Shown piece by piece: positions 7,269 to 52,300 of a stretch of 52,502 bases of DNA. Every line of letters starts with the position of its first letter. Within the stretch, counting starts at the first letter, position 1. A program made the translations under genes and the position numbers. The notes beneath the pieces are model-generated. The model made no database searches and was not told where the DNA came from. It saw only the letters and a program-made list of their open reading frames with translations. Source of the stretch: an uncultured Clostridia bacterium (GTDB lineage: Bacteria > Bacillota > Clostridia > Christensenellales > UBA1242); contig CAMVKM010000002.1 of NCBI GenBank assembly GCA_947168085.1, positions 1-52,502 on the forward strand. The letters run 5' to 3'.

Positions 7269-7270
7269 AA

Positions 7271-8798: not shown

Positions 8799-8818
8799 AA
8801 AAATTTTTGTCCTTAAGT

Positions 8819-9478: not shown

Positions 9479-9487
9479 AATGTCTCC

Positions 9488-10930: not shown

Positions 10931-10977
10931 TTTCTTACCTCAAAATTGTTTTACGCTAAAACAATACAATTTGACAA

Positions 10978-12564: not shown

Positions 12565-12584
12565 GCTATTTCTCCTTTCATTTT

Positions 12585-14333: not shown

Positions 14334-14370
14334 GTTTGTTTTTCTCCTAAAAATTTGATTTATAACTAAT

Positions 14371-14399
14371 ATTATACTCCAAAACAAAAAATATTTCAA
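14371..14399 (-). promoter_or_regulatory. Near-consensus sigma-70/SigA promoter for the aspS operon
   Basis: Minus strand reads TTGAAA (14399..14394), exactly 17 nt spacer, TATAAT (14376..14371). The leader to the ATG at 14333 is only about 30 nt. Confidence 0.65.
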
Positions 14400-14568
14400 G
14401 TAATTTAGGTGATATTCTTGTAAAAACAAGCAAATTCATGTTTGATGATTTTGGGTCAAATCCACAAATTGCTTTTTGCTTTGCGATTTTAACTCAAAAA
14501 TTTTAAAACAAAAAACGATTAAAACTGTTTTTTGAAAACTTCAAAAAAATGCCGATTAAATCTGAATT

Positions 14569-14605
14569 ATAACACATGTTATCAAACAAAAATAACAAGT
14601 GTTAT
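14569..14605. promoter_or_regulatory. Two copies of the palindrome ATAACA-N2-TGTTAT (possible operator pair)
   Basis: ATAACAcaTGTTAT at 14569..14582 and ATAACAagTGTTAT at 14592..14605, with centres 23 nt apart. They lie in the intergenic region between a terminator and the aspS promoter. Confidence 0.3.
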
Positions 14606-14642
14606 AAGATTTGTGTTTAAATTTGTTTTGTTTTTACACAAC

Positions 14643-14676
14643 AAAAAAACAAGAGCCTAAAACTCTTGCTTTTTTA
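14643..14676 (-). terminator. Rho-independent terminator ending the giant-protein operon
   Basis: Hairpin CAAGAG / 7-nt loop / CTCTTG, with A/T runs on both sides. On the minus strand it is followed by a T7 run. It begins 28 nt after the stop at 14704. Confidence 0.7.
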
Positions 14677-14703
14677 TGTTTTGTGAGATTAATTTTTTTA
14701 ATG

Positions 14704-16245: not shown

Positions 16246-16309
16246 AAACACATTCTCCTTTTTTTATGTCTGGTAAATTGTATCACAAAACTTTAATTTT
16301 GTCAAGTTT

Positions 16310-32441: not shown

Positions 32442-35400
32442 TTAATTTGCGCTTACAAATGAAATTCTTGGATAATTTCCATCTTCAAATGTAAACACTG
32501 ATTTTTGTAAGTAAAGTGTTGAGTAAAAACATGCTGCAGTTGATGTGTAGGTTGGTGTTATGTCACTTGAAAGCACAAATGAAATTTCGGCTTCATTAGC
32601 CATTTTTCCATTTGACATGTAACTTTCTGAAACAAGAGATGAGTAATCTAAAGAGTACTCTGTTGAAATTAAGTTTCCAACACCAATAATACGCGTTGTT
32701 GTTGGGTTTTTTGTTGAGTCATAGTAGCTGTTTTTTGGCTTGTTGTTAACACTGTCAACCGAAGCCAAAATTCCACTGAAATAACTTGGACCGCTGTCAA
32801 TTTCAGTACCACGAGCAAATTTGTCTGATGTAAATTGAATTTCGCCAACATTAAGACAATTGATGATGGCTCCATAGAATTTGTCAGTTTGATTTGGATA
32901 CTGCTTTGCTTTTTGTGTTGCAACAATTCCACCAACTAAAATTGTGCTTTTTGTGTCATCAGTTGTTGAAATGTCCAAATGACTTTCAATTGTGTCTGCA
33001 ACAATGTTTCCACTGTTTATGCAGTTAACAATAAATGTGTTTGTTGCTTCACCCACAATTCCACCAGAGTAAGACCAATCTTCTTTTCCCAAGTTGTTGA
33101 TTGAGTAAGCATTAAGAACTCCATTGTTTGTGCAACCACTTACAACACTTGAAATTGTAACTTCTGAAAAAGCTTGAGCATTAATTGGTTGATAAGCAAT
33201 TTGTGAAGTTGATTTAAGAGTGATTCCGGCTACCTGAGTTGCAGCCAACAATCCGTTGTTTGCGCAGTTGTAAATGTTGGCACCATAACACTCTCCAGCA
33301 ATTCCAGCAACCCTTGTTGCCCTTGAACTTTGATCGGCTGTTTTTAACAATGAAATTCCAAAGTTTGAAGTACAATTTGTTATGGTTGTGTTGCGATAAG
33401 AGTTTTTATCTGAAACTGGCTCATAAGAACTTGAATCATACTCTTCTGTTCCACAAATTTTTCCAACAAACGTTCCAAAGACAATTGGTTGAGTTCCATA
33501 ATCATTGTTTGAAACATAACCCCTTGGATATTTTGTTTGGTCAAGACCAATCGAGCAGTTTGCAATTAATCCACCTGTCATTTGTTTTGCCACAATACCA
33601 AGATAAAGTGTGTTTTCTGATTCAATTGAAACGCTGTATTCAAATTTTGAAACCTCAATATCAAGATTCATCAAAACTCCACGCTGTCTAAAGAAGTTTG
33701 AAGAATTTGGTCCAATGCTTGGGTCTATCAAATCTTTGTTTGTGCCACCTTCAATTGTGTTAAACAATGGTTCACCACTGTAAATTTCAAAATTACTTAT
33801 TTTGTGAATAACTTGAACCACATCGCCATTTTCAATTTTTGTTTCCATTCCATCAATTCCACCAGTAAATGGCTTTATAAAAGACTCAGAGAATGAGAAG
33901 TTGTTTACAAATTCATTTGTTGAACCTGTTGGTGATGTTAGATTTATGTCTTCAGCAAGCCTAAAGAAACAAGTTGTTAAAGTTTTTATGTAACCAAACT
34001 TTGTTAAAGCATCTGTTCGTGACATAATCCAATGTTTGTTTCTTGGGTTTTGACTTGTTGGTGCATCGAGTGTTGATTTGATGACAAATGGATTTTCTGC
34101 TGAACCATTACCACTAGAAAATTTGTTAAACAAAACATGATTCATTGACCTTGGCGCACTTCTAAGGCTGTGAACATTTGAACTTGTTGTAACAACATAA
34201 AAATCAAAATTGTAGTATCCCAAATCCCACAAAGGAATGCTAAAGTAATTTAATCCACCTTCAGAAATTTGTTCTGTTTCTGACAAATTAATTTCTTTGG
34301 TTTTTGCTTGTGCAATATCAACATAGTCAAGGCCATCTTCTTCTATTTCATCATTTTCGTATTCTGAATACTTGTAAACCAAAACAATTTTGTCATTTGC
34401 AATGTTGTAAGCACTTCTAATGTCCATGTTCCAAAGCAGTTGCAATCCATCATTAGAAAGTTTACATGAATTTATTGGTGCAAATTTGATAGCATTAATT
34501 GTTTTGCTTTCACTAAAAAGATAAATTGGTTGACTAGCATCAATTCTTTCATTGTTTGGAGCATAAGCACGGTAAGTTATGTCAAGAGAAGCAAAGCCAT
34601 TTTGATCAATTTTTCGGTTTATTTCTTCACTGTTTATGTCAATGTTTTGCCTTTCTGTTGTTCTAACTTCTGTGTCGTCAACTTTTATGGCAATTCCTGC
34701 AACACTTGAATCATAAGCATAATCGCCACCCCAAGCAATAACACCATCTTCTGTGATTGTTACATCATTAATTTCATCAAGTTTAATAACATTTAATAAT
34801 GGTGTTGAATATGCTGAGTTCAAGTAAACTGTGGTTAAAATTTGTCTTGAATCTTCTGTTCCATAATGCCTAACTCTTATTGAACTAAACTTGTGGCCTT
34901 GTGAAGCAACTTCAGAAAGAGCGTTTGAGTTTTGTAAACTTCTTAAAGGCTCTAGTTTTGTTACGCCATCATCTAGCACGATTTCAAGCTCATAATCGCT
35001 GTATTTGTAAATGGCAGAACTATCTTCTTCCCAAGTCAGCACACCATCTTTGACGGTTAAATTTACTGGCCTTCCACGAATTTCAGCATAAAAACCATCC
35101 GTAAAATCACTTGACACATAGTCTTGCTGTCCACCAACAAGTGTTCCTATTGCGCAAATTTGAACACGAACACTGCTTCTAAGTTCAAAATGCTCACTCA
35201 AGAAAAAGTCTTCTTCTCTACCCACTTCATAAGTGTTTTCACCGCAAACAATTCTGTAACCACTCACATGATAAGAACCATAATCGTGTTCTGTGTTTCG
35301 ATACCAAACAATTTCACCATTTTCCACATGAACATCAGTTGGTGTTTGCAATTTTGTTACATTAAATGTGCTTCTTGCTGTTACAATAGAGTTGACATAA

Positions 35401-38400
35401 ACATATGATTCAACACCACTAAAGCCTTTTGTTCCTTTTGCTTGAACCGTAAAACTAATACTGCCATCAAGCCCAGCAAAAGCACCCCTTGGCAAAGTCA
35501 CAAAATTTGAACCAGTTTGTGGCCTTATGTCTTCATAATTCACTGTGTTGTTACCATTTGTTGCAACTGTTGTGTAAGTTAGTTCATTCTCCGATATTCC
35601 ACCACAAATTCCCCATTCAACTTCACCATTAACAACATTAATGTCTTCAACAGACTGAAGTTTTCCAATATTAACAGCTCCAGACCCTGCCACAGAAAAC
35701 ACCTCTGGGATTGATTGTATGTAAAATGATGGATTACCCACAGCAATAACAGATAGATTGTAGTAAATTGGCCTGCCATCATAAGTTCTTGAAATGTCAG
35801 CAAGTTCTGTGCTGCTCATATCATAACTGTAAACCCCGCCTTCTATTGGCACATAAACAGTTTCAACTTGTTGAACAGTTGGGCTAAACACAAGCATATA
35901 ACCATTGTCATAAACATTGTTGTTTGTCCAAACAATTTTTCCGTCACTTATGTTAATTGTTGGTGCTCTGTTTCTGTAAATGTTTTTAACTTGGCTTGTT
36001 GCAGAGCTGATTGTAAGTGTTCCATTTTTCTGCACAAGATTTTCATCACTTCCATCAATTTTGGCAGTAACCGTAAGCCCCAAAAGCCCAACGTCAGAAT
36101 TTCCTAAAGCACCACGATTGATGGTTGAATCAATCAAATACATTGATGTTGTGTTTGGATCGTTAATTGTTTGAAGTTCTGTGCTTCCACCACCTTCACG
36201 TTTAATTGAAACCGTGTAGCCAGCTGCTCCATTAATTTTGTCCCATGAAAGCAAGTAGTTTTTGTCAACAAGTCGTTTGCCTGAAGATGTTTCTTCAACC
36301 ACTGAAGATGTTCCGTTAACACTAATTCCTGTAACAGTGCTTAATCTGTTTACAAACACTTGATTTGAAATGTCTCCATTAATAAAATCTCCCCTGTAAA
36401 CAGCTTGAACTGTAATGTAATATCTGTTTGAAGCAAATGTGTCATCAAAAACAAAACTGTTTGTTTCAAGCACTTCATCGTATTTTAAAACATCATTTGT
36501 TAAAATTTGATAAACTTTAATTCTGTATTGTGCTCTTGCAACAGAATCCCAAGTTATTGTGTTATAGTTTGTGTCATTGTCAAGAAGTGATGATTTAAAG
36601 ATTTTTATTGAATTAGAATCAATAGCTCCAAGTTTTCTGTATGATGACTCAACACTTTCACGGCTAGAAACAATTGCACTTCCAACTCCAACTGCCGTAA
36701 CAGAAATTCCATACTCACCAGCAGCAACACCCTTCATGTCCCAACTTGTTCCTTCAATTGAACGTGTTGCTGTTGTGTTTGTGTTTGTGTTTCGATAGTT
36801 AATTATATAATTGTTTATTTTTGTTGTGATTCCATCAATTTCACCACTAACTTGTGACCAATGAAGCACACCATCTTGAATGTAAAGCTCTGGAGTTTTT
36901 AGTTTGTAAAGTGATGCCCCACTTTTTGATTCTGGTGAATTTATGTAGTTATCTCCACCCAAAGCAACAACTGTTGCCCGATATTTTCCAGCATCAAGAT
37001 TTGTTGTGAAAAGTGTTGAAACTGACATGCTCCAAATTGGATCATTTTGATTACAAGAAACATCTTCAAACTTAACTTGCATTGAAATCGATTCTGTGTA
37101 ATAAGTTAACAAAACTCGATAATTTGTTGTTGTTGGAATCGTGTCACCAACAAGCATTTGAGAAGTTGAACTGTTTTCATCTTTGTCGATAATTGGAGAT
37201 TTTGGTGAAGCAAGCCTTGTAAAAAGCTCTGAATCGCTGTAAGAAGAGTCTAGAACATAAACTGTTTGCGAGTCTGGTAAAACTCTTTTGTTTGAAGAAT
37301 TTGCTGAATTTTTTCTAACACAGGTTTTTATTCTCACAGCACAAGTTGAGCCAGCACCCATTTGTGCACTTGTTGGAAGGCAAGTTCTTGGATTGTTTGA
37401 AAAATTGTCAATATTAATTCTGTTTTTTCCATCAATCAAAATTTCGTAAACAACAATGTCTTCCATAACTCCAACAATGTTTGTTGCTTCATCCCAAACA
37501 AATTGTCCATTTGAAATCTTTAGGTTTTGTGGGGTTGCAAGTTTGTAAGGAACAACCACTTCTGACCTTTCTGAATTTAGATATTTTATGCTGCTCACAT
37601 CATTAACTGCGTTAATATAAAATTGATAACGACCATAGCCAACATAATCGGATAAATAGTTAGACAAATCGTAAGATGTTTCAAGCAAGTTAAATGTTTG
37701 TGCCACATCTTGCTGTTCAACATCAAAAACACTAATTTCATAGTGTGTTGTGTCTAACGCAAACTCTCCTGGCTCCCACACCAAAACACCTTCAGAACTA
37801 AAAGCAGTAATGATTGGTGCAGATTGTTTTGTGAAAGTGTGATTTTGACGATTTGTGCTGTCAATAACAATTTCATCACCATCTCGAATGTTTCTTCCAT
37901 TTCCAAGACCGCGAACTTTAACAATGTATTCACCCGCTTGTTCCGTGTAAGAATTGTCATTAAAAGAATATGTTAAAACATCATTAGACAAAACCTCTTG
38001 GCAAATAACTTCGTTTCCTTTTGAAATTATGATCTCATAGTTAAGAGCACCATCAAGCGCATCCCAACCAACATCACCAAAACAATTTTTTAAGTTTGCT
38101 TTTGCAATTTTGTGAATTTCAAGTGTGGCTGGTTCAACGCTTTCAACAACAACATCTTGTCCATCTTCGTCTTGATAACTCATTCTCGCAACAACCGACA
38201 CAACATTAACATTTTGTGCTCCGCTAAATTCACCATCAGCAACAAATTTCATTGATGCACAATCAAGTCTTAAATCATTGTTTCCACTTGGTAACACATT
38301 TTGTGGGCGATTGTATTGAATGTTTGACGGATCATCAACATATGGATTTCTGCCATTCACATAAACAAAGTAGTTGGCAGCATTTTTAACTGGGCTCCAA

Positions 38401-39701
38401 AAAATATAGTTACCACTAACCCTAAGGTTTTCAACAATGTCAAGTTTTTCCATGTCAATTTTTTGAACTGAGCTACTCAAAATTTCCTTACTATTTCCAA
38501 CAGTTTGAATCCTTAGTGTGTAGGCATTTGCTGAAACATCTTGAGTTAACATATCCAAAGAGAATCTCCCATTATTCTCAACAAAGCCATCTTCTATAGT
38601 TTTTAAGAGCACAGGACTTGATGATGAACTTGCCTTAGACCACACAAAAACAACATATCCACTAGCATTTGAAACTTTGTCCCAAGAAAGAACTTCGCCA
38701 CGATAAGACAAATTTGCTGGAACTGGCAATTTTTCAATTGCAACTGGCACCATATTTCTAGATTCAAAAATCTTTAATGCAGAATTTCCTGTTGTGGTAA
38801 TTTCAAACTCATAAGTTCCAGATTCAAAAGTTTTTGGAATGGTCCAGTAAATTTCATTGTTTGATCTCACAACGTCAAACACACTTGTGTCCACAATGTC
38901 TCCACGAATTGTTTCTCCGCTTTGAACTTTTGTTGTTTTAAAAAGGTCAAGCCTGTAAGACACATCCATTCTTCCAGTTGTCGTTGCTGAAATTTTGTCG
39001 TTTAACACATTAACATTACTAACTTGCGGCAAAATTTCAAAACTGTAAGAATCCGTTTCTTCCGAATCTGTGTAAAGAGTGGTAAAGTCATCTTCTGTCA
39101 CAACAGATTTTAGTGTCACTTCATATCTTCCAGAATCAGTCAGTTTAAAATTGGTTTTGCTCAAAATTTGTGGTTCTTGCTGTTCTCCATCTTTTGTAAT
39201 GCTTAGTTCATACTTTGGAGAGTAAGTTACAAATTCATCTCTTGCAACCACAGCGTCCCAAACCAAACTGGATGTTTGGTCATCATACTGCAAATTTTCT
39301 GGAGCACTTAATGCTTGAACATCTCCAACAATCGTAATAAAGCAAGTGTCACTAAAATTGCCATAGTCACTTTTCACAAAAACTTTTGCTGTGTATCTTG
39401 TCTTGTCATCAATCACTTTAACTTTTACAAGACCAGTGTTAGGGTCAACAGTTATGTGCTTGTCACTTTCTGCATCAGTAAAAAAACGAACAATTTTGTT
39501 TGTTGCCTCAAGCGGCATCAAGTTTACTCTAAGCTGAACATCATCACCTTGTGCAACAATGTACTGCGTTTGAGTAAAACTTAAACTTGTTACAGGAATA
39601 TCATCTTCTGAACACGCCACAAAAGCTGGCGCAAAAAAAGCCATTAACAAAACAAGAAAGAAAAGTTTTACGACCTTTGAAATTGTTTTTGCTCTCTCCA
39701 T
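32442..39701 (-). CDS. Giant (2,419 aa) lipoprotein: Big_2-like domain, at least 15 Fn3-like modules, C-terminal GLUG-type beta-helix
   Basis: A GGGAGA RBS lies upstream. The signal peptide MERAKTISKVVKLFFLVLLMAFFAPAFVAC has lipobox A-F-V-A-C (Cys30, 39612..39614). The Big_2-like segment is PVTSLSFTQTQYIVAQGDDVQLRVNLMP..ITVDPNTGLVKVKV. Repeated modules include VPANLSYRGEVLSWDKVSNASGYVVFVW and IVENLRVSGNYIFWSPVKNAANYFVYVNG. The C-terminal third opens with the GNGSAENPFVIKS entry motif and has GG(L/I)(I/V) ... NC.N.G repeats. Confidence 0.88.
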   Translation of the reverse strand: MERAKTISKVVKLFFLVLLMAFFAPAFVACSEDDIPVTSLSFTQTQYIVAQGDDVQLRVNLMPLEATNKIVRFFTDAESDKHITVDPNTGLVKVKVIDDKTRYTAKVFVKSDYGNFSDTCFITIVGDVQALSAPENLQYDDQTSSLVWDAVVARDEFVTYSPKYELSITKDGEQQEPQILSKTNFKLTDSGRYEVTLKSVVTEDDFTTLYTDSEETDSYSFEILPQVSNVNVLNDKISATTTGRMDVSYRLDLFKTTKVQSGETIRGDIVDTSVFDVVRSNNEIYWTIPKTFESGTYEFEITTTGNSALKIFESRNMVPVAIEKLPVPANLSYRGEVLSWDKVSNASGYVVFVWSKASSSSSPVLLKTIEDGFVENNGRFSLDMLTQDVSANAYTLRIQTVGNSKEILSSSVQKIDMEKLDIVENLRVSGNYIFWSPVKNAANYFVYVNGRNPYVDDPSNIQYNRPQNVLPSGNNDLRLDCASMKFVADGEFSGAQNVNVVSVVARMSYQDEDGQDVVVESVEPATLEIHKIAKANLKNCFGDVGWDALDGALNYEIIISKGNEVICQEVLSNDVLTYSFNDNSYTEQAGEYIVKVRGLGNGRNIRDGDEIVIDSTNRQNHTFTKQSAPIITAFSSEGVLVWEPGEFALDTTHYEISVFDVEQQDVAQTFNLLETSYDLSNYLSDYVGYGRYQFYINAVNDVSSIKYLNSERSEVVVPYKLATPQNLKISNGQFVWDEATNIVGVMEDIVVYEILIDGKNRINIDNFSNNPRTCLPTSAQMGAGSTCAVRIKTCVRKNSANSSNKRVLPDSQTVYVLDSSYSDSELFTRLASPKSPIIDKDENSSTSQMLVGDTIPTTTNYRVLLTYYTESISMQVKFEDVSCNQNDPIWSMSVSTLFTTNLDAGKYRATVVALGGDNYINSPESKSGASLYKLKTPELYIQDGVLHWSQVSGEIDGITTKINNYIINYRNTNTNTTATRSIEGTSWDMKGVAAGEYGISVTAVGVGSAIVSSRESVESSYRKLGAIDSNSIKIFKSSLLDNDTNYNTITWDSVARAQYRIKVYQILTNDVLKYDEVLETNSFVFDDTFASNRYYITVQAVYRGDFINGDISNQVFVNRLSTVTGISVNGTSSVVEETSSGKRLVDKNYLLSWDKINGAAGYTVSIKREGGGSTELQTINDPNTTSMYLIDSTINRGALGNSDVGLLGLTVTAKIDGSDENLVQKNGTLTISSATSQVKNIYRNRAPTINISDGKIVWTNNNVYDNGYMLVFSPTVQQVETVYVPIEGGVYSYDMSSTELADISRTYDGRPIYYNLSVIAVGNPSFYIQSIPEVFSVAGSGAVNIGKLQSVEDINVVNGEVEWGICGGISENELTYTTVATNGNNTVNYEDIRPQTGSNFVTLPRGAFAGLDGSISFTVQAKGTKGFSGVESYVYVNSIVTARSTFNVTKLQTPTDVHVENGEIVWYRNTEHDYGSYHVSGYRIVCGENTYEVGREEDFFLSEHFELRSSVRVQICAIGTLVGGQQDYVSSDFTDGFYAEIRGRPVNLTVKDGVLTWEEDSSAIYKYSDYELEIVLDDGVTKLEPLRSLQNSNALSEVASQGHKFSSIRVRHYGTEDSRQILTTVYLNSAYSTPLLNVIKLDEINDVTITEDGVIAWGGDYAYDSSVAGIAIKVDDTEVRTTERQNIDINSEEINRKIDQNGFASLDITYRAYAPNNERIDASQPIYLFSESKTINAIKFAPINSCKLSNDGLQLLWNMDIRSAYNIANDKIVLVYKYSEYENDEIEEDGLDYVDIAQAKTKEINLSETEQISEGGLNYFSIPLWDLGYYNFDFYVVTTSSNVHSLRSAPRSMNHVLFNKFSSGNGSAENPFVIKSTLDAPTSQNPRNKHWIMSRTDALTKFGYIKTLTTCFFRLAEDINLTSPTGSTNEFVNNFSFSESFIKPFTGGIDGMETKIENGDVVQVIHKISNFEIYSGEPLFNTIEGGTNKDLIDPSIGPNSSNFFRQRGVLMNLDIEVSKFEYSVSIESENTLYLGIVAKQMTGGLIANCSIGLDQTKYPRGYVSNNDYGTQPIVFGTFVGKICGTEEYDSSSYEPVSDKNSYRNTTITNCTSNFGISLLKTADQSSRATRVAGIAGECYGANIYNCANNGLLAATQVAGITLKSTSQIAYQPINAQAFSEVTISSVVSGCTNNGVLNAYSINNLGKEDWSYSGGIVGEATNTFIVNCINSGNIVADTIESHLDISTTDDTKSTILVGGIVATQKAKQYPNQTDKFYGAIINCLNVGEIQFTSDKFARGTEIDSGPSYFSGILASVDSVNNKPKNSYYDSTKNPTTTRIIGVGNLISTEYSLDYSSLVSESYMSNGKMANEAEISFVLSSDITPTYTSTAACFYSTLYLQKSVFTFEDGNYPRISFVSAN
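32750..34120 (-). other. GLUG-like beta-helix region of the 2,419-aa lipoprotein (approximate bounds)
   Basis: Motifs TGGLIANCSIG, VAGIAGECYGANIYNCANNG, SGGIVGEATNTFIVNCINSGNI and VGGIVATQ..GAIINCLNVGEI. These belong to the same repeat family as in the 1..3172 protein. Confidence 0.6.
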
Positions 39702-39797
39702 TTTTTATCTCCCAATTTTAATTTTTAGAATGCAACTTAAACGGTTAACTTTTACAAGTAAATTTACTAAGTTAGTTTAACCAAAGTTTATGTTTTT

Positions 39798-39826
39798 ATT
39801 ATAATATAATAAACAAAAAAAAGCAA
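39798..39826 (-). promoter_or_regulatory. Weak candidate promoter for the lipoprotein / giant B operon
   Basis: Minus strand reads TTGCTT (39826..39821), 17 nt spacer, TATAAT (39803..39798). An A8/T8 run (39815..39822) spans the -35/spacer junction. The -10 is about 90 nt upstream of the ATG at 39701. Only 3 of 6 positions match the -35 consensus. Confidence 0.3.
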
Positions 39827-40178
39827 ACAAAATGAGACCTTTTTTTTAATATTTTTTTCTACTAACCCAACATTTTTTTGCAGTTAAATATTGCTTTTTT
39901 GCATGCAAAACACACAAATTTTCACATTTTTTTAAAAAAATTGGGTTTTTTAACACTTTTTTAACGTTTTTTTGAATTTTTTTAAGCTATTTTTTGCAAA
40001 TTGTGATTTGGCTTTTTTCTTCTTCAAAAAAATTAAAATAAAAAATTTTTAGCAATTTTAAAAATATCAAAAAAATATTTTAAAAAAAACAACTTTTTTA
40101 TGTTTTTAAAACATTTTTAAAAACGTAAAAACCCAACAAAATTTTGTACAACTTGCACAAAAAAAATTAACTATAAAA

Positions 40179-40211
40179 ACAAAAAAAGTAAGACATTTTT
40201 GCCTTACTTTT
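40179..40211 (-). terminator. Candidate rho-independent terminator for giant A
   Basis: Minus strand reads AAGUAAGGC / loop AAAAAU / GUCUUACUU (one G-U pair) followed by a U7 run. It lies about 140 nt downstream of the stop at 40351. Confidence 0.5.
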
Positions 40212-40350
40212 TTAAAAGAGTAATGTTAAATTAACACAAAAATTGTAGGTGTTTTTTGTGTTGATTTTTAAATTGCTTGAGCATTGTTAATTTTATGTTT
40301 TCAACTTTTGCCTAAAAATTAACAAATTAGCAAAAATTGATTTTTTAGCA

Positions 40351-43300
40351 TCATTCTTCTTTACTTTCTACATGGCCTGTTCCCTTACATTTTGGACATT
40401 CTATGATTCCTTTTCCTCGAACATATGGATCAGCACCTATGTGCAAACCACCACCGGAACCACCGCAATTTTCACAACCATAATGAGTAAGATCAAACCA
40501 TCCTCCACTAGTGTAACCATTTCCATCACATTTTGGACATTTAATTTCACCAGTTCCACCACAGTCAGGACAAACATCCATGTTTTTAACATATTTGTAA
40601 GCTAAATCTTTTGCCCATCTGCCCGTCTCAACTTCAACACTAGCGCTCCAAGTGCACTCAGAAGATGATGAACTTGTTGCATTTCTCATGCTATATCCAG
40701 TGCTCTTTGACTCGGTCCATACTGTTTCACTTATTGAACCAGGACCACTAATTGTTTTTGATGAACTGCCTGACTTTGACCAACTGATAGAACCATGACT
40801 TACCTCATAAGTGTAAGTACTTCCATCTGAACGAGTTCCTGTTTTTGTTTCATACAAACTAGCACTACCACTACCACTACCAGAAAAGTTAAACGTTGCC
40901 GTTTTATTGTGAACATACTCAGCATCACCAGCACTTCCTGAAATGTTCATGCTACCACTTAAAGTCGATGCATTTACGTTTGTTCTGCCCCTGTAGCTTA
41001 CAGAATTTGAAGCTGAACCTGTTTCTATTCCTGATTGTGATCCAATATCAGCATCAGACAAATCAAATTCCAAAATTCCATCGTTCGGAATCAATTTTCT
41101 GTTTTGTGGATCATTTGGATTAGATAATGCAGTGTTTGCAAACACAGAATAAATTGTTAAATGAAGTTGTGAAAACTTTGTTATTTTGTTTGATTTTTCA
41201 GTGTTAACAGTAATATTAAAACCATCATCATTAATTCTTAATTGAAGTTGTTTACCAAACAACATTTCAAGAATTGAAGTTTCGTCAGTTATTGGCCTAT
41301 CCAAGAAATTATAAATAATTCCAGAATCATGCACTACTTCACAAGCATCTTCATAACTTCCCGAAGCCTGGCCTTTAAGTTCAAATTTCTTGTTAAAGTT
41401 GTAGGTTGGTGTTGTTGAATAATTTACATTTTTAATATATTCACGGTCACGATAGTAAATGGTTGCCTCAATTCTAATCGAACTTGGGTTGTCACCAGCT
41501 GATGCTGTTCCTTTTGTTTCAGCAATGTTTGATATTTTTCCTGTTTTTTCATCAACAGAATAATTAACAGTACCAACATCATCTTCTTCATCAAAGCCAA
41601 ACAACACTTTTCCATTGGTTTTCATTGATTCGGTTTCAACATTTGGAGCACCTGAAACTGTTGGAGTGAAACTGTCGACGTAGTCGACATCAAAAGTGAA
41701 TGTGTAATAGTAACCAATCTCATATTCAGGAACTTGAGATTCAACTTTAATTAAAATATGGTTTGTTCCAAGCTGGAATTTTCCTATTGCAGCTTCTCTA
41801 AAAATTCCACCATCAACAAGCTTTGAGGCCATTGATGCCTCTTTTCCTTTTGCATCATGCGCCGTAACCATTAACGCATCCCATGTTGTTGGATCTATGG
41901 TGTAAGAACGAGTTTTTACCCCTTGCATTTCTTTTTCTTTAAATTCTTCAACTGGATTGTCACCATTTGAGTTAATACTAGAATTTAAAGATTGTTGCTG
42001 CAAAAATAGTGTTGTAATTAAATTGTTATTATATTTAGTTCCCTTACCAAAAGCATTGTAACTTTCACTGTGTGTGTTGTATTTTGCTGACATATCATCA
42101 TTGTTTTGTGAAGCAAATGTAATTGATGTGCCATTTTGTTCTAGTGTGAAATCATTTTTTGCGTTTGTGTAAATTTTTCGATAAGTAAAGTTGTAAGAAG
42201 CACTCCAATCACTCATAAAAGTCATGTAAGTGTTAGAAAGTCGATACTTAACCTTATAAACGCCACCAGGGCTGTTTTGACAAATGTTGTTAAGCGCTAT
42301 GATTAAATCTTTGGCATTAAATTTACCATTAATTGTCTTTTCACCAACATCAACAACTTTAATTGTCCAGTTACTTACATAGTCATCACTAATATCGGCA
42401 TTTTTACCTGTAAGACCACTTATCTCTCCAACTTTGATTGCAGAACTGTTCACATTTCCATACGCTGCAGCATGTCTTTCTGGTGAATTGTCTGTTATTT
42501 CGTTTGCATTAACCATGTTGTTTGCGTAGGAATGGTCAAATGTGTAGGTTGTTGTTATGTTTCTAAGATGAGAAAGTTTTAGAATCAAATCAAATGGTGA
42601 TCCAACCCATTCTTCATGACCATAAATTCTTGAGGCCTGTCCATTTAAAGTTATATCATAAAATGGTTGCACACTAAACACCCAACTGGTGTGAGTTGCC
42701 CAATTTTTGCCATCAACATCAAACATAAATTTTGTTGAACCATTGCCATTGTTATAACAACTTTCAATTTGTTTTGCAAGGTTAACATAGGACTCACTGG
42801 ACCTATTTTCTAAATCAAACTCAAAACTTTCACGAAATGTTCCATTATCTTCATAAACATCAATCTTGTAATGTGTTGGATTAATTTTTAGGTTTTCAAT
42901 AAAATCATATGTGTAACGAAGTGGAATGAAGTTTGGTTTCAAAAGACCTGTATTGTTACTGCTTGGACTATCTTGAGTTTCTTCATTTGCCCATATGTCT
43001 GCGTCTTTGTCCATTTCATCAACCACTACTTCTGATGTTGTTGTTCGACAGTAAAACATTAATTCTCTGCTTCTCATTTGACTGTCAGTCCAAATTGAAC
43101 CCTGTTCTTTTAAGGACACAACCACTTCAAATCGAAGAAGAGCTCCCGGTGCTAAGCTGGTTCCTTCTCTTAAGAAATAATTGTAGATTTGACCATAAAA
43201 ATCATGGTTTTTTGGAGAACGACCGTTTTCTGGCTCATTTGAATCAACACGTTTAACACTGTTGTTTTCAATGTTTGTAAGATCTTGACTAAACATTAAA

Positions 43301-46300
43301 GCATTTCCCCAATAAACATTAAACATAAACGTAAGCCCAAGATCTTCACCATTAACGTTGTCATACTCCGAAGTTCCTTCATCTGGAATGATTACATAAG
43401 GATGGAAAACTTCATACCTTTTTGGAGTTTTGTTAGAAACTTTGTATAAAGTTGACACAACGCCATCAACTTTTGTCATTTCATACTCATCTAAGATGTT
43501 ACTTTCACCATCAAGCAATCCACCAAAGAAAAATTCTTTCATTCTGGATCCAGTTCCATTTTCAACCCATGAAAGTTGTTTTTTGAACACCACAACAAAA
43601 GCGCGATTATCATTTCTAAAGTTTCCTGTTTGCTTGTTTGGCTCGGTTTTTGAAAAAGACAAATAAGAAGAAAGTTTGTATTTTTCTTGACCAATGAAAG
43701 CCCTTGTTTCTCCAGTTTTTACTTGAGTTGTAAGCATGTCGTTTGGCTGAGAAAAATCAGTTGATGCGTAAATATCTTGACCTATTGGTTTTGAGTAGAA
43801 TCCCCAAATGTTCATTTGTGTTGTTGCACGTTTACATTCGTCAAGTGTTGTTGCTTTTAGATCAACACTTTCAAGCATAATGTCTTGAAGGAATGAATGA
43901 TTTGCTGTTGAACCCGGATAAATGTTTTCGGTTTTAAAATCAACAACTTTGTTGTTTTGATAAGATGTGTGAACGAGATACTCTGTTAACTCTCTTGAAT
44001 CAAACACTCGAGCAGCAAAAGTAAGTTTGTGTGGAACAAATGTGTCAATAAATAGCTTGTAAAGGCTTTTTCCATTTATGTTTTGAATACCCAAAGCATT
44101 TTGATAAATATTTAAACTTCTCTGATCCAAAACCATGGTGATTGTTTTCATGCTTGAGTAGTCGTCTTCGTCAACAAAAATCCAGTTTCCTTTAAATGCA
44201 TTAAAAGTTGTTTTTATGATAATTACTGAAGGGTCCACTCCGCCGTCACGAATAGTTGTTGCATCAAACCTGTTACTGTCTCTTAAAATGTCTACATCCC
44301 CTTTAATAAGATAAAGAGCAATTGAATCAGCACGTTTATCAACATTTGTTATAGTGATTGTCATTTTTGTGTCAGTAATAATATTCCCACGATCTTCAAC
44401 ATACTTAAGGACTGGACTGTCACCTTCATATTCAATAATTGGATCAGTTTGCCTGTTGTAGTTACCTTCAAACACAACTTCGTTAATAATTGGTACAGCA
44501 AAGCGAACATGATGATAGAACAAAAGTGTTGCGACATTGTTTGCTGCCGTGATTTGCTCTAATGTGTCTGGATCTTCAATAACAAGTTCTTTGCTTAAAA
44601 TTTTTCCACGAAGAAAGTAAGAACCTTCCACATTGTAGTAAATTGATTTGTCATTATCTTCACTGTAAACATCGAAAATCCACCCAAGTTTTATTGGAAT
44701 TGCACTAAATTCAATTGTTGTGTAGGATGTTTTCTTGACATTGCTTGCTGTTTCTGTGTTTTTGACATAATATTCATTAGTTTTCTTTGCGTAAACATAA
44801 TTAGCACTTGATGATGAACCAATGTTTGAGTACTCGGCAAGCACATTTCCGAAAACTTCGGAGTAATTGTCACTGCCCGTTTCATCAATTCTTACGTAAT
44901 TATCAAAGATTGTTATGTGATAGTAGTTTCCACCATCCCAATCTATTTTTATGTAGAATGGAGCATGAATGTTGTTTGTATCTGTTGCTGCCGATTGAAT
45001 CATAACCATTGCATAGCGCCAACCAGAAGCAAAAGGATTTGGACCAAGTATAAAGCCTTCAGTTCTAAGTGACAAATAAAGGTTGTGATAAACATTGTTT
45101 TTTGCAATGTCAAAATTATCATCTGCCGACACATAGTAGTAATTTTCTTGGCTTTGTTGGTTAGCTTTTATGGTTGAATAAGCTGTTGAAATTCCAAGCA
45201 TTGGCGCTTCAAGACCTTTTGCAAACACTTTTTGATAATTTGAAATGTTTGAGTCAAGCACAAATTCACTAAAGTTGTTTGACAAAACTTGGAAACTTAG
45301 GTTGTTTATGATTAAGTAAACAACACTTGGAGTGATGCACAAGACGTTGCTATCTTCTTCCAAATCAAACTTGTAGCTAAAATTGTAGTCAAAACCAGAC
45401 TCATTCATAAAAATACGTTTTTGATTTTCTGGAAGCACAATTGGGAAATCAATTTCTCCAGCAAATGTTTCTGGCTGCGATGCTGTTTGCAATTTGTTGA
45501 TGATATCAATCTTAGGCATGTTTAAAATTGGTGTTTCACTGTTTTTAAACACTGTTTTGTAGAACAAACAATTCCAAGAAAAACTTAATTCAAATATTTT
45601 TCCTTCTTGTTTAAGTTTTATGCTTGACTGATCTATTGGACTAAATTTAATGTAGTGAAGCATTGCATATTGATTTTGTTTTGATGTTTTGTTGCTGGAT
45701 TCTTCTGCAACTTCATCAACTTTGTTTCCATAAACTCTAAAGTAATGTGGACCATAAGCAAATCTGTAGATTTCAGCATATGGGTCATTTTCATCACAAA
45801 TATCTTTTGGCCAAAACATGGATGAAATGTCAATATAAATAAAACCATCAGCAAGTGGCGTGTTGCTTATTGGAACAAAAGTGTTTCCAACTTTTGACAT
45901 GTCTGCAGCAAGTGTTGGATCATAAAAGGCTTCGCCAGTTTTTGAATGTTTTATCGTGTAAGTATCTGGATAAGTTAAGGTGCCGCCCTGCAAACTTGGC
46001 ACAGCTTCAACCTTAAATTTAATATAAACTCTACGTTTGCTTTCATTTTCAGCCCACGCTGTTTTATGTTCATCTTTGTATGACTCAGGATCATTTTCAT
46101 GAATCATAGGTGTATCACTTTGATAAGGATAAAGTTCTTGATAAGCTGGATCATCAATTTTGTCAACGATAGAAACAGAGTTATCTATAATGATCCAAGG
46201 GGCAACAATAAGTTTGTGTGATTCAAATAAAACAGAATCTTTGTAAAGTGGGTTTTCTGGATGTTGTTTGTTGTAATCAGTTACAAGTGACAGAACAAGG

Positions 46301-49300
46301 AAATAACCACCCGAAATAAGTTCATCACTCTTAAACCATTTGTCATATTCATAAGTTTTCAAAATTGAGTTTAAATTAAAACTATAATTTGCAACAATGG
46401 TATTTCCATTCTCTGTGGTTTTTGTTGTTCCTTCTTCATCATACAAGAACATATCAAAACTCATTTTGTATGTTAAATCATGGTCTTCCAAATCAAGCCA
46501 ATCTTCTATTTGTTGTTGAGTAAATTTGCTGTAAACATAACTTCCTTCAGGAATTTCTGTTGTTCCAAGCTGATCTTCCATGTCTCTAAGACTTGTGTCG
46601 CGATATTTATTGAAAATATTGTAGTCAACACGCAAAACTTCAAGCATAAATTCAACACCTGGATTTTCACCATTAACTTGTCCATCAGTCCAAAGTCTGT
46701 CATCGTAAGAATAGTATTTGTTGAATTTGTTAGATAATTGCACTTCACCAGCAACTGAATCATCAGTGTCCGCTGTCGCCCAATTTGAACCATTTCCAAG
46801 TTTTCCACCACGAATAATTTCAGTCTCCCAAATAAAGTTTGGATCAGACATCAAAATATTGTGTGTTCTGTCATAAATTTCTGTGTAAAGTGGCAAATCA
46901 AGCCAACCATCAATAGTAGCGTAAATGCCTATGGTGTTACTGTTGTCTTCAAGGCTGTTGTCTGCCCACAAAACCTCATACAAACTTTGATGGAATGGTT
47001 TTAAAGGATTTTCACCCGGCTCAAGAGTATACTGTTGTGTGATCTTCAAATCATTTACTAAAATCACAAAAGTAACATCACGGCTTTGTCTTGTGTTGTT
47101 ACTAAAAGTCCAACTAAAGTCACCATAATTGTTTTCGTCAGTTTTGTCGTTGTTAAGACCAACATTTTGGATGTAAAGGTCAGCATAAGCTGCTCCCCAA
47201 TCTTTCCAAAATCTAAATGTTGTCTCTTTTGTGTCAAACATGTCTTGAAGTGTTGCATATGTGTCAATGTAGTTATATGCATTCAAGTCACTAGATGTTT
47301 TAAAGAACGAAACAGAACTAACTCCTGCTTGTGTTTTTATGGATTCACCACCACGAATAAGATCACGGAAACTTGAATTATAATGATAAACATCAACAAT
47401 TTCTGCTGTTGAATAAATGTAGTAAAGGTCATTAAAGTCAAGAATTGTTCGAATTATTCCATGGTCATTTACTTCTTTAAGTTCAAAAATTGTTTCTGTT
47501 CCAAAAAGTTTTTGTGTAAGTTCGTTAAGCTGGTAATGAACAGTGTAAATCCCATCTTCATCATCATCAACATAGGTAACATCAACAAAAGCACTAAATG
47601 TCGTAACTTCTCCTGCTGATGTTTCCATTGACACGTCATACTGAATTGTTAAGTTTAATGTTGGATCTAACACTATTGTGTAGAAGTTTGACGAATCAAG
47701 ATATCCACCCATTTCTTCAATACTCTTGTCAAACCATTCATAACCATGGTTGCTTCGTGTTTCCAAAATGTAACTGCCATTTTCTTGCAAAATTAAATCA
47801 GCATGAACTGTTCCAATGTGATGGCAATAAGAAATTGCTTTTGTTTCATTTAAATCACTGTTTAAAATAAAGTTGTTTAGGTCTTCTTCACTTGAAATCC
47901 ACTTTGTTTTGAAGAAAAAGTTTGCATAACTCATAAGAGTAATGTTTTTAAGAACGAAGTTAAACACAGACACAGTAGGCTCAACTTGTCCTAAAGCATT
48001 TTGTTTTGTTCTTGCTTGTTCTTTCCACAAAAATTGTCCATCAGCATCAAAACACCAAACTTCAAAAAGCGCATCAATTTCACTAATTCCATGTTGAATT
48101 TTTAAATCATAAAGTGTGTTGTAATCGTCAGTTCTGTATTCAACAGCTTCAAGTGAAACATTGCCAATCATGTGTCTTTGATAAATTGTGAGTTTTTCAA
48201 TATTTTTAAGACCAAATGTGTAATCAAAAAGATTTGTGTCACTGTAGTAAACGTGGTCACCAACAGCAACAAGTTTTAAATAATAAAGCCCTGGAGAAAG
48301 ATCAAAACTTTGTGTTTGAAGATCTAAAAGACTCAATTTTAAAACTCTAATATTAGCAAACACCGCTTCAGAAACTAGGCATGTTGGCATCTCGGTTTGC
48401 AATGCTGTTGAAAGGGCTGTGTTAACATCAATGTTTTCTTCTTCCGTTAATCCAACAGCGTTTTGATACTCAATTTGAACTTTGTTTGCATCAACTTGAA
48501 CAAATCTGGCAACTTTAAGTTCAATATCAAATCTTTCATTAATATGTGCAAACGCCCTGTTAACCGCACTTTCAATCATTTCAGCTGTAATAGTAGAATT
48601 TGATGAAGAAATTTCAATCAAACTTCCATCTTGATAAAAATAAATATCAAATGACTCAACACCAACTGGTTTATCAACACTTCTTCTAACTGTTTTTATG
48701 TTGAAAATGTAACTATCAAGATGAGCATTAACAATCTCCAGCAAACTTTGGTCTTCAACATAAATTGGTTCACCATAAGTGCTGTGAGTCTCATCATTTG
48801 GTGTGTGGTCAGCGTATTGAACATAGCTGTCCACAACAACATCAACATATTCAATACTTGCATCCAAAACTAGTTGTCTGTTGTTAATAAATTCATGTTC
48901 AACAGTGTCACCAATTCGCTTGTAAGAATTTGCACCAACAGGAACAACTGTTATGTAAAACTTGTAGTCCCCAGCCGGAATGGCTTCAAGAAATTCTGTA
49001 AGATTTAAAGAAATTTGAGTGTTTTGTGCACCTTCGATGTAGAAATTCTCACCGGCGCCATTGTAAATGTAGTAAACTGGAGCAACTCTAGTTGTTGATA
49101 TACCTGCTTTTAAGTAATAAATGCTTGTAACATCGCCCAAAACAGCATCATGAAAAATCATTTCTTCGCCATCAAAATTCTTAACTTGAATTTGAAATGC
49201 TGAACTTGAAAAGTCATCATTTTGCGCTTTAAATTTTAAAGTTTTGCTTCTTTCACTGCCCAGCAAAGTGTAATCTTCTTCAAAAACATAATTTGGATCA

Positions 49301-52300
49301 AAAACTGTTCCTGCTTTTTCATAAATCATCAAGTCAACACGGCTTTCACCAAAACCCTCATAACCTTCGCCTGGTTGAGTTTGTCCACCTTGTTGTCCAC
49401 CAAAAGGATTGTGTGTTGAAATGATGTTTTTTGCTTTATCAGAAGCAACAACTCCCCAAAGACTGTAAATGCCCTTTTCAATAAATGGAACAACACTTCC
49501 ACCTTCATCTTTTGTTAGTGATTGAAGTTTGTTTATCCACTCTGTTATGTTCGCGCTATAAGAAATTGAATTTTCATCACCTAAAAGATTTATTTGAATT
49601 GGTGTTTCAAATTCATCCACACTAACGCTTCCCAAAACAGAAGTTGTGTTGTCCCCATTAAATGTTGGAACTGTTATGGTAATTTGATCGTAAGGATAAC
49701 ATGTTTGCAATCCCCCCATTCCATCATCAACAACATAACACCACTTGCCTTCGCCATCAAGAACAAAACTGTTAGACACAACAAAGTAGTCACTTAAAAC
49801 AAAGTCATATTTTGTTGCCACATTTTTGTCATCATTTGCCTTTGTCGCTTTCCAAGTAAGTGTGTAATCTGTTAAATCTTCACTTATGGACAAATTTAAC
49901 CAAACTGTTCTAGAAATTTCAAGCGGAAGATTAACTTCACGATAAATGGTTCCACCCCTAAAGATTGTGTGAACTTTTTCTAATTCATCAGTAACATAAA
50001 AATCTGAAACAACCATTGTAATAATACAATCACGAACAACTGATGTTAACTGAGATTCAAGATTTAATCGAGTTTTTCCAGCTTCAGTTTGAAAATCACT
50101 GTCTTGCGATATTGCATTATAAACAAGAGTTGCATAACCTTCTCGGTCTAAGTAAACCGTGTAAAGAAGATTTTTTGAGTGGTTTGAAAGCAAAACTTCT
50201 GAAACGTCATTAAATGGATCATCCCAAACAAGGAAGTAAGTTCCATCTAAGTCAATTGTCATGTCAAAATAAGGCAAATCAACTCCACCCACATAAAATG
50301 TGTCGTAGACAACCGCTGAAAAACCAACAATTTCAGTGTTTGATTTCGAATAAACCAAAGCACCATAAATTTTCGTGTAGTCACTGGCATCAAAATTTTG
50401 AATTACAAACGAATTTTCTGTTGTTGTAAACCAAAAATCCATGTCTGACACACTGTCATAAAGATCAGCGTAATCTTCAAAATTTTCATTGTAAAATGGA
50501 TAATTTTCTGATTCACTTGTGTAAGAAAAGTAAAGTTTGTTCAATCTTTGTTCAAGATAAACATCTTCCATAACTCCACCGGTTGTTTTATCATAACGGT
50601 AAAGTTTTACCGTGTTTTGTTCTATGTCCCACTCATAGTAAACATAACCATATGAAGAACCTTCAACAGCATCCCAAGTAATTGTTCCATCAGAAAGCAT
50701 TTTAAGGTTTGTTGGTGCTGGCGTTCTTAATGATGTTATGATTGTGTAAGATTTTGCTTCTGACTCAGTTTTAAACACAAAACTTTCTGGCATTGGGTTT
50801 GAAATCATTTCTTGATAAGCATCTGTTGGGTTTGGATACTTGTCAAGTTTTATCACATGTTCAAAATCAGTTGATTGTGTTGCATCAAAACTTGCTGCTG
50901 TTACTGAAAATTCAAAGTTGTAATCAAATGTTTGCCATGTAATGACGCCCCCAAGGCCTCTTGGATCAAAGCCATTTATGTAACCAATTGGAATTTTGTA
51001 CTTAAACAAAATTGATGATTCGGTTTCTTCATAATTGTAGTAATATGATGAATCTTGATTTATGCCAAGTTCAAAATTAGTTGTTTGTGGCACAAAATTT
51101 GCTTCATCACTTTTTGTTGAAATAGTTAAATTAAAACCTTTAAAGTTGTCTGTAATCAAACTTTTTAATGTTAAAATGCTTACCAAAACTGGAGTTGTTG
51201 AACCAATTTCACCTGGAGTAACAACAACACTTTCAACAGGGTCAAGAGTGCTGGCATAGTAAACATAAATTGGGTTAGACCAACCACTTTCAGTTGCTAT
51301 GGAAGTCTCTTGGAATTTTATGGTAATTTCATAAATGCCCTGCTTGCTCTCAAAAAGTTCTTTTGTATCAATAAAATAACCATAAAACTCTAAGGTTCTT
51401 GAAACTCTCATAACATTTATGTCTTTAATTTCTTTGTCTATGACTGTGTTTCCATAAACATTTGAAATTGAAACAGTTATTTTGGCGTTTGTTTTTGAGT
51501 TGTCATAATTGCTGTTTGCTGTTTGTTCAATGTAAACAAGATTTTGTTTTGTTGCCAATTCATCACTTGTAATGTAAGCTTTTAAAAGTGCGTCATTATC
51601 TTCCTTAAAACCAATTCGTGGAGCACGAATGCTGATTGACTTTGGTTTAAAGCCACGAGCTGTAGGAGCAGAATCTTTAAAATGTTTAGCATCATTTCCA
51701 AGCACAACAAGTTCCAAACGATAGCTGCTTCCAGAAATCATTCCTGTCATGCCATAGTATTTGAAAGTGTAAGTGTCAGTTTTTTCTTCTAGTGTTGCAA
51801 TCAAACTTGTTTCTGTTGTCGAAACTTGTTCTAAAACAGTCCAAATTCCATCAATCAAAACAAATTCGCGTTCCATAGAATCAACAAATGTAAATCCATT
51901 GTCTGTTGCCTTTATTGCAAAAGTTATCATAATTGAAGTGCTTGCAACATTAAACAAACTTAATTTGTAACCACCAGCATCAACTGCTTCAATTTGGCCA
52001 TCTTCTGTTCTGTTTTTTCCTTGAATTTTGGCAAAAGTTGCATTAAGTGTTGGCACTGTTTGTCCATCTTGTTGACTGCCCGTAAAACCATCAACAAAAT
52101 CAATTCTTGAACTATCAAAAATTTGGCTTACTTCGTAAACAATTTCTGCACTTCTTTCACTTGAAACACACGTTCCATCTTCTTGAATCCATGATGTGTT
52201 GCTTGCAACAACAAAAATTCTGTAATTTCCATTGCTTACATTGCCAGCATTTAAGTAGTCACTTAAATTTGTGCTTAATGTTATGGTGTTGTTTGAAAAT

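Follow-up and report, generated by a model that had tools for sequence, protein, structure and literature searches.

A predicted DnaJ/BSD2-type cysteine-rich module at the C-terminus of giant proteins from an uncultured Clostridia bacterium

The DNA stretch analysed here, in the following called the window, comprises the complete contig CAMVKM010000002.1 (positions 1 to 52,502) from an uncultured Clostridia bacterium (assembly GCA_947168085.1). It encodes two giant paralogous proteins, A and B, both of which carry a cysteine-rich module with CxxCxGxG repeats at their C-terminal end. The locus raises the question of what kind of module this is and what it could do at the far end of such a long chain. 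A preliminary description, prepared from the sequence alone, regarded the module of giant A as a textbook four-repeat CxxCxGxG module. As a DnaJ domain it is not a textbook case: the module stays below the gathering cut-off of the DnaJ family PF00684, and its nearest solved relative is BSD2.

The C-terminus of giant A and the affiliation of its module

Residue numbers of giant A refer to the open reading frame (ORF) as visible in the window (4049 aa) and not to the full-length protein. About 1170 aa of the N-terminus are missing at the contig end, and in alignments residue 1 of giant A pairs with residue 1174 of giant B and with residue 1167 of the A-type orthologue P0002. The gene and the elements of its 3' end are as follows.

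40351-52500, minus strand: giant A, taken from the ORF list, at least 4049 aa, A-type member of an orphan giant family
40621-41103, minus strand: Ser/Gly/Thr-rich stretch before the module (aa 3800-3960), indel-rich and fast-evolving
40375-40572, minus strand: cysteine-rich module of giant A (aa 3977-4042), four CxxCxGxG repeats with eight cysteines in 66 aa
40549-40572, minus strand: repeat 1, CPDCGGTG (aa 3977-3984)
40516-40539, minus strand: repeat 2, CPKCDGNG (aa 3988-3995), 3 aa past repeat 1 and forming a BSD2-like doublet with it
40453-40476, minus strand: repeat 3, CENCGGSG (aa 4009-4016), bearing the subfamily signature (Y/W)GCxxCGGxG
40408-40431, minus strand: pseudo-repeat without cysteines, DPYVRGKG (aa 4024-4031), separated from repeat 4 by IIE
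40375-40398, minus strand: repeat 4, CPKCKGTG (aa 4035-4042)
40351-40374, minus strand: tail of 7 aa, HVESKEE, and stop codon, from the translation

Translation of the minus strand between 40351 and 41400 gives the end of giant A as SSSSSECTWSASVEVETGRWAKDLAYKYVKNMDV-CPDCGGTG-EIK-CPKCDGNG-YTSGGWFDLTHYG-CENCGGSG-GGLHIGADPYVRGKGIIE-CPKCKGTG-HVESKEE-stop, with KNMDV directly before repeat 1. The four repeats at 40375-40572, their gaps of 3, 13 and 18 aa and the seven residues between repeat 4 and the stop codon, all reported in the preliminary description, were thereby confirmed. In alignments, DPYVRGKG-IIE before repeat 4 represents a conserved [KR]GxG[KRH][IV]xC motif.

At the Cys and Gly frequencies of giant A, 4049 aa should contain 0.00025-0.00056 CxxCxGxG motifs by chance, compared to four observed within 66 aa. 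An expectation of less than 0.001 excludes a chance origin of the cluster. Apart from the eight cysteines of the module, no CxxC is found elsewhere in the visible 4049 aa of giant A.

The stretch in front of the module (aa 3800-3960) is a compositional outlier. Serine, glycine and threonine together account for 47% of its residues, compared to at most 31% in any window of the core, and its fraction of order-promoting residues (0.217) lies below the core minimum of 0.281. It looks like a flexible tether, in line with the linker proposed earlier, and similar tethers occur in small lipoproteins that carry the module. The GC content at third codon positions (GC3) of the module is 0.15 and host-like; its higher overall GC content is due to Gly and Cys codons. 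A recent horizontal acquisition of the module was rejected based on this GC3 value.

Pfam scores were determined on the C-terminal 150 aa of the giants. PF00684 (DnaJ_CXXCXGXG) was the top Pfam match; however, the scores of 24.4 bits for giant A (E-value 3.5e-5) and 18.1 bits for giant B are below the cut-off of 32.7 bits. In a scan of the whole proteins, PF00684 was not reported at all. Values below the cut-offs were also obtained for PF25436 (BSD2_CRD; A 18.9 and B 17.6 bits, cut-off 27), PF15777 (Anti-TRAP; 15.3 bits, cut-off 32), NF058604 (16.5 bits, cut-off 65) and TIGR02349 (DnaJ_bact; 18.1 bits, cut-off 377). Neither a J-domain nor a G/F region or a substrate-binding domain was detected in either giant with Pfam and NCBIfam.

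A profile built from 19 module sequences was compared with the sequences in the PDB. The best matches were BSD2 (6EKB, E-value 3.8e-5) and EMB2737 (5.6e-5), followed by the cysteine-rich domain (CRD) of E. coli DnaJ (5e-4) and Anti-TRAP (0.0077). An AlphaFold2 (AF2) model of the module based on the 19-sequence alignment reached a predicted local distance difference test (pLDDT) value of 82.8 and a predicted template modelling (pTM) score of 0.64, with short strands flanking each knuckle; with A and B alone in the alignment the model was unusable (pLDDT 31.8). A Foldseek comparison of the model with the PDB yielded BSD2 (6EKB) as best match (probability 1.00, template modelling (TM) score 0.69 normalised to the target, 77 aligned columns), followed by the zinc finger of DnaJA3. 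Matches to the module in a viral library were DnaJ-CRD-like proteins. Sequence profile and predicted fold together show a cysteine-rich hairpin of the DnaJ/BSD2 superfamily, of which BSD2 rather than DnaJ is the nearest solved relative by both measures.

BSD2 is a plastid Rubisco-assembly factor, reported from plants and algae only, that forms a hairpin holding two zinc ions with four cysteines each (PMC5859369). Like the module, BSD2 (PF25436, 6EKB) is a stand-alone CxxCxGxG hairpin without a J-domain. It consists of two CxxCxGxG-x3-CxxCxGxG doublets, which explains why the spacing in giant A seemed wrong for DnaJ. The doublet CANCEGEG-CVA-CSQCKGGG of BSD2 has exactly the 3-residue spacer found between repeats 1 and 2 of giant A, and a first doublet of this type is present in A, in P0002 and in all small members. 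The second half of BSD2 is a second intact doublet, whereas in giant A it is composed of the (Y/W)GCxxCGGxG repeat, the pseudo-repeat without cysteines and repeat 4. A real second doublet exists in the B-type giant P0003 (CNGCDGKK-WQS-CSECSGVG); its place in A is taken by the pseudo-repeat and repeat 4. While BSD2 is located in the plastid, the module of giant A is situated at the end of a chain of ~5,300 aa in a bacterial protein that is predicted to be exported.

The CRD of DnaJ (PF00684, 1EXK) has four CxxCxGxG repeats and eight cysteines as well. Its gaps in E. coli, read from 1EXK, are 9, 14 and 6 aa, as stated in the preliminary description, and differ from the 3, 13 and 18 aa of giant A. 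In addition, the CRD is flanked by the G/F region and the substrate-binding domain in a cytosolic J-protein, whereas the module of the giants is C-terminal and probably exported. Anti-TRAP (RtpA, PF15777, 3LCZ/2BX9) was the top PDB match when giant A was used as single sequence (E-value 0.16) and, like the module, has two CxxCxGxG knuckles side by side, separated by a short spacer. In contrast to the module, it is a cytosolic regulator of 53 aa with one knuckle pair and a single zinc ion, and the fold match is weak. For CHP02642/TIGR02642 (PF27659), a weak precomputed match on the module-bearing protein P0022 and an E-value of 0.028 for the C-terminus of giant A were obtained. Membership in this family was rejected, since the score of 14.1 bits is far below the cut-off of 101.4 bits and the knuckle motif is merely common to both.

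By analogy with BSD2 and the DnaJ CRD, the eight cysteines of the module would hold two zinc ions. From the strand order of the model and the match to BSD2 we infer that the two sites pair repeat 1 with repeat 4 and repeat 2 with repeat 3.

Metagenome loci L084-L163 encode proteins that are unrelated to DnaJ chaperones and consist of long CxxCxGxG knuckle arrays with spacers of 3 residues. Such arrays are common in environmental metagenomes, which makes CxxCxGxG alone a poor indicator of DnaJ function.

Retention in the giants and distribution of the module subfamily

The giants themselves are very rare. When 1.84 billion representative proteins were searched exhaustively with HMMER, a profile of the A and B C-termini detected only three giants (P0001-P0003). 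Giants A and B and their two orthologues are thereby the sole family members known from about 15 billion predicted proteins. P0001 is giant B itself. P0002 (5248 aa) is the syntenic A-type orthologue and 53% identical to giant A over the full length, while P0003 (5305 aa), the syntenic B-type orthologue, is 41% identical to giant B; both originate from sequencing run SRR19415688. A scan of the GTDB species representatives (185,579 genomes) with an A/B core alignment gave 113 pattern matches, none of which was confirmed at that sensitivity. Word-indexed searches with the last 1500 aa of giant A and with a two-sequence module alignment gave no matches; the index is insensitive, as the former search also missed giant B, so that this is not evidence of absence.

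Outside the module, the giants have no match in Pfam, NCBIfam, PHROG or the PDB sequences. A profile of all four giants matched only the DnaJA3 zinc finger among the PDB sequences, on the module itself, and a search of the PDB sequences with the whole of giant A returned nothing beyond the module. No internal repeats above 70% probability were detected with hhalign in segments of 300 columns; a tandem-domain architecture is thus not demonstrable from the sequence.

Giants A and B are 31-35% identical in alignments, within the range of about 30-45% estimated earlier but confined to its lower part. The relevant features of giant B are as follows.

16310-32413, minus strand: giant B, 5367 aa, B-type paralogue, identical to P0001 in the protein library
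16457-16684, minus strand: module of giant B (aa 5244-5319), with canonical repeats 2-4 and a degenerate repeat 1 (CMLC and an insertion)
16313-16456, minus strand: charged C-terminal extension of giant B past the module, 48 aa

At its N-terminus, giant B has one hydrophobic segment (aa 25-53) with a basic tail ahead of it. A conserved P-[AV]-V-A-S motif follows right after this segment in three of the giants. The tail, whose basic character is conserved among the giants, and the helix show the highest conservation within these proteins, with 45% invariant columns.

In all four giants (A, B, P0002 and P0003), four CxxC pairs with eight cysteines in total are present at the C-terminus and have survived both the A/B duplication and a speciation; homologues without the module or with disrupted cysteines, which the preliminary description had named as evidence for a fortuitous or decaying fusion, were not found. 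The A-type giants have four canonical repeats with gaps of 3, 13 and 18 aa in A and 3, 14 and 19 aa in P0002. In the B-type giants, the GxG of repeat 1 is lost and its CxxC is kept. The repeats of giant B read CMLCSEWI (GxG lost), CDECWGNG, CSGCGGHG and CPLCKGSG, followed by the tail of 48 aa, in which an amphipathic helix is possible at DELIEEWHKFFERYKLLGY. The earlier statement that giant B has one degenerate repeat is therefore correct as to the GxG, but the metal ligand pair is not lost.

P0003 is degenerate at repeats 1 and 3. The position of repeat 3 is taken by an Ala/Gly-rich hydrophobic insert of ~45 aa (aa ~5225-5275), which contains a hydrophobic stretch of 32 aa (Kyte-Doolittle value 1.68) between repeat 2 and the final two repeats, followed by KK. 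This insert could be a membrane segment. At the position where giant A has the pseudo-repeat DPYVRGKG, P0003 carries real cysteines (CNGCDGKK), which restore the count of eight despite the lost repeat 3 pair.

Between A and P0002, sequence identity is 57.7% in the core, 38.6% in aa 3800-3960 and 42.4% in the module (28 of 66 residues), and gap columns number 32 in aa 3800-3960 compared to ~7 in the core. A large share of the identity in the module is accounted for by the eight invariant cysteines and conserved glycines. Conservation in 98% of the 66-aa core windows equals or exceeds that of the module. The approximate ratios of nonsynonymous to synonymous substitution rates (dN/dS) of this pair are 0.27 for the core, 0.49 for the tether and 0.44 for the module; for B and P0003, 0.34 was obtained for the core, 0.41 for the pre-module region and 0.64 for the module. 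All ratios are a rough guide only, as dS values of 1.1-1.9 are near saturation, and a dN/dS lower in the module than in the linker, as proposed for testing earlier, is not clearly seen in A and P0002. Columns invariant in all four giants make up 20-45% of the N-terminal part and 7-14% of the last ~700 aa, with a slight rise to 21% at the module. As read from these alignments, the Cys/Gly scaffold alone is conserved, while the module overall evolves as fast as the tether and faster than the core. The pattern is that of variable loops on a putative invariant metal scaffold, at the end of the protein that evolves fastest.

The module also occurs beyond the giants. The exhaustive search retrieved twelve small proteins (P0004-P0015, 143-445 aa) that were matched through the module columns only. 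Eleven of them share the offset of 11 residues between repeats 1 and 2, an aromatic residue and Gly before repeat 3, an invariant CGG within repeat 3 and [KR]GxG[KRH][IV]x before repeat 4. The consensus of the subfamily is CxxCxGxG-[KR][IV]x-CxxCxGxG-(Y)-x8-18-(Y/W)GCxxCGGxG-x9-22-[KR]GxG[KRH][IV]x-CxxCxGxG. A word-index search added the members P0022-P0025, and a metagenome scan with a degenerate DNA pattern added L119 (four tandem paralogues of ~258 aa), L169, L151/L160 and L111; most matches to this pattern were generic CxxCxGxG arrays outside the subfamily.

With a local hidden Markov model (HMM) of the subfamily, members reach at least 55 bits across the full model length and are set apart from generic CxxCxGxG arrays, for which the maximum is 39 bits. 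Giants A and B reached 75.3 and 58.6 bits, values that are partly circular, as both are in the training alignment. The independent members (two further L081 paralogues, the four of L119, L169, L151 and L111) scored 55-78 bits.

In total, the module was found in at least 24 unrelated non-giant proteins, mostly small lipoproteins. A signal peptide, a lipobox or an N-terminal transmembrane helix is present in 21 of the 24, and 17 end within 2 aa past the module. BACON, TonB_C, Flg_new and GDPD domains were identified as partners, or the module follows a bare Ser/Thr/Ala-rich tether. With their anchor, tether and module, the small lipoproteins resemble the end of giant A in layout, and low-complexity tethers precede their module too. 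Tandem lipoprotein paralogues each ending in a module are encoded in L081 (three, 6001-7395) and L119 (four, 2504-5725); the latter array comes after a Sel1-repeat protein. Neither informative partner genes nor a polysaccharide-utilisation locus were found in the neighbourhoods of the L081 and L119 lipoproteins. P0008 is annotated as belonging to a Muribaculaceae metagenome-assembled genome (MAG), and the small module lipoproteins are probably from Bacteroidota.

Based on the shared signature, these modules are considered a discrete, so far unnamed subfamily used as terminal appendage on proteins with predicted export. A functional terminal module had been proposed earlier, and this part of the proposal agrees with a domain that is under selection and kept in both paralogues and both orthologues. 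Its supposed restriction to the giant family does not hold in view of the 24 or more unrelated carriers. Literature searches on CxxCxGxG modules in extracellular proteins or lipoproteins, and on giants bearing them, returned nothing relevant.

Possible functions of the module

The module may act as a two-zinc terminal knob, i.e. a zinc-locked extracellular hairpin that forms the free end of a giant anchored by its N-terminus and contacts a partner through variable loops. We consider this reading moderately probable. The conserved N-terminal signal-anchor would hold the chain of ~5,300 aa in the membrane, with the remainder being exported. The module, carried by the Ser/Gly-rich tether, would emerge last and sit at the free end. 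Binding of metal would lock the hairpin into a small and stable knob, on which the invariant Cys/Gly scaffold would present two fast-evolving loops (between repeats 2 and 3 and between repeats 3 and 4) to the partner.

Several observations weigh against this interpretation. The gathering thresholds of PF00684 and PF25436 are not reached. If the ~45-aa hydrophobic insert of P0003 is membrane-spanning, the end of the module would be placed at the membrane and not at the distal tip. Signal peptidase could cleave at the conserved PxVAS motif behind the N-terminal helix, and the N-terminus would then not be an anchor. The net charge of the module ranges from -2 to +11 across members, and no conserved binding surface is evident. 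An export signal is missing in three of the 24 non-giant members (P0007/L117, L151 and P0025), which means that the module is not confined to sites outside the cytoplasm, and in five members (P0005, P0009, P0014, P0015 and L111) it is internal or membrane-proximal.

A wider proposal, which we regard as tentative and rather doubtful, is that the module represents the founding example of a tether-displayed two-zinc knob outside the cytoplasm, an exported bacterial branch of the DnaJ/BSD2 hairpin shared by the giants of gut Clostridia and the tandem lipoproteins of gut Bacteroidota. In both, it would serve as a surface unit, either for binding through the variable loops or for sensing zinc or redox state.

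A role as holdase, as thiol-disulfide oxidoreductase or as redox-sensitive Cys4-Zn switch in anaerobes appears unlikely. Clients, aided in their folding outside the cell, would be the giant itself, its lipoprotein partner or other envelope proteins. Likenesses for a holdase or oxidoreductase are the plant proteins CYO1/LQY1 in addition to the DnaJ CRD and BSD2. The nearest known relatives of the module all work on non-native client proteins, as BSD2 does on RbcL assembly intermediates (PMC5859369). The lipoproteins consisting of anchor, tether and module only suggest that the module is functional by itself, and reduced extracellular thiols are plausible for hosts that are gut anaerobes. However, no J-domain, Hsp70 partner or thioredoxin-like element was found near the giants. 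A C-terminal module that emerges last could not help in cis with the earlier folding of its own chain, and the residues outside the scaffold are poorly conserved, unlike those of a dedicated active site.

It is also improbable that the module serves in anchoring. The N-terminal helix would then be a cleaved signal peptide and the C-terminus the cell-proximal end, at which the module binds a component of membrane or wall, or the P0003 insert attaches directly. The P-[AV]-V-A-S motif in three giants, the 32-aa hydrophobic stretch of P0003 with the following KK and the extra, possibly amphipathic, tail of giant B are consistent with such an arrangement, and no other wall-sorting signal, including one of the LPXTG type, was found in the giants. 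On the other hand, the high conservation of N-terminal tail and helix would be unusual for a discarded signal peptide, and A and P0002 are devoid of a hydrophobic C-terminal element. The lipoproteins are already anchored at their N-terminus and do not need the module for retention, and the fast evolution of the C-terminal 700 aa fits an exposed tip.

A fortuitous motif cluster or a decaying, functionless fusion remnant, to which the degenerate repeats of the B-type giants (repeat 1 in B, repeats 1 and 3 in P0003), a module dN/dS above that of the core and the sub-threshold Pfam scores might point, is effectively refuted by the chance expectation of <0.001 motifs, the eight cysteines in 4/4 giants after a duplication at ~33% identity, the offset of the lost pair in P0003 by a cysteine pair in the adjacent pseudo-repeat, dN/dS values <1, the same architecture in at least 24 unrelated proteins and the confident AF2 model.

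The giant locus, its host and implications

Two further features belong to the region between the giants and the 3' end of giant A.

32442-39701, minus strand: gene M, lipoprotein-like, 2419 aa, with signal peptide, lipobox FVAC and weak Big_2 match, 28 nt upstream of giant B
40182-40213, minus strand: hairpin downstream of giant A that resembles a terminator and has a T-run

Gene M is situated between A and B. It is 54% identical to the syntenic gene of L204 and 38% identical to a lipoprotein of 2296 aa directly upstream of the A-type giant P0002 on L205. In L204, the locus of P0003 (giant at 7674-23591), the order of an M-homologue, the B-type giant, a protein of ~500 aa, AspRS, ABC-F, CysRS, SLOG and MGDG synthase is that of the window. 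M homologues upstream of both giant types, together with the conserved gene order, identify the region 16310-52500, as judged from the alignments, as a two-gene cassette that underwent an ancient tandem duplication. The cassette has a lipoprotein of ~2,300-2,400 aa, such as gene M, as its first half, followed by a giant of ~5,300 aa.

The gap of 650 bp between giant A and gene M (39702-40350) has a GC content of 19.6% and is rich in A/T runs. The orthologous assembly is interrupted at the same gap, with contig L205 stopping and contig L204 starting there. An acidic protein of 515 aa with one hydrophobic segment (aa 133-152) is encoded immediately downstream of giant B on the minus strand (14704-16251). 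It has no family match and is syntenic in L204 at 39% identity; it may belong to the giant system.

The housekeeping neighbours are genes for aspartyl-tRNA synthetase (AspRS), an ABC-F protein, cysteinyl-tRNA synthetase (CysRS), a SLOG protein, a glycosyltransferase of the monogalactosyldiacylglycerol (MGDG) synthase type and a U32 peptidase. Neither a T-box leader nor another Rfam match was found at the AspRS and CysRS genes (9488-14429, minus strand), although the host belongs to the class Clostridia of the Firmicutes. An exact look-up of the CysRS returned no record. In comparison with the GTDB representatives, the AspRS shares 85% identity with the enzyme of the MAG Tb.RUG.40 and 66-67% with those of further MAGs, all from uncultured Clostridia, and a spore-coat protein F is encoded in the syntenic relative (L204). 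Based on these two observations, the host is most likely a spore-forming, single-membrane Clostridia bacterium from gut or rumen with a GC content of ~34%.

At the start of the window, a surface-type protein with an N-terminal helix is cut off (1-3199, minus strand). It features many repeats of the GGIVG type (GLUG motif, PF07581) and Ig-like C-terminal repeats. The adjacent protein of 333 aa (3200-4201, minus strand) has hydrophobic segments at both ends and matches PHROG 37900 (function unknown, E-value 1.2e-23), with no Pfam family. Scans of the window with PHROGs and NCBIfam, and for Rfam families and tRNAs, yielded nothing else of relevance.

The fold and the CxxCxGxG motif are already known. 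New are the terminal use of the module on putatively exported bacterial proteins, the signature of the subfamily and the attachment to very rare giants that could not be annotated otherwise. With ~16 kb each, the giants offer the module of 66 residues as their only recognisable domain and hence as the one experimental handle. The minimal lipoproteins of anchor, tether and module imply that the module is an autonomous unit which can be studied alone. The subfamily signature helps to annotate lipoproteins of gut bacteria that are now labelled 'DnaJ-class chaperone', 'TonB family protein' or not at all. If the module binds zinc outside the cell, a chaperone fold of cytosol and plastid would be extended to the bacterial cell surface, and an exported bacterial branch, if true, would represent the first role for the DnaJ/BSD2 fold outside the cytoplasm or plastid in bacteria.

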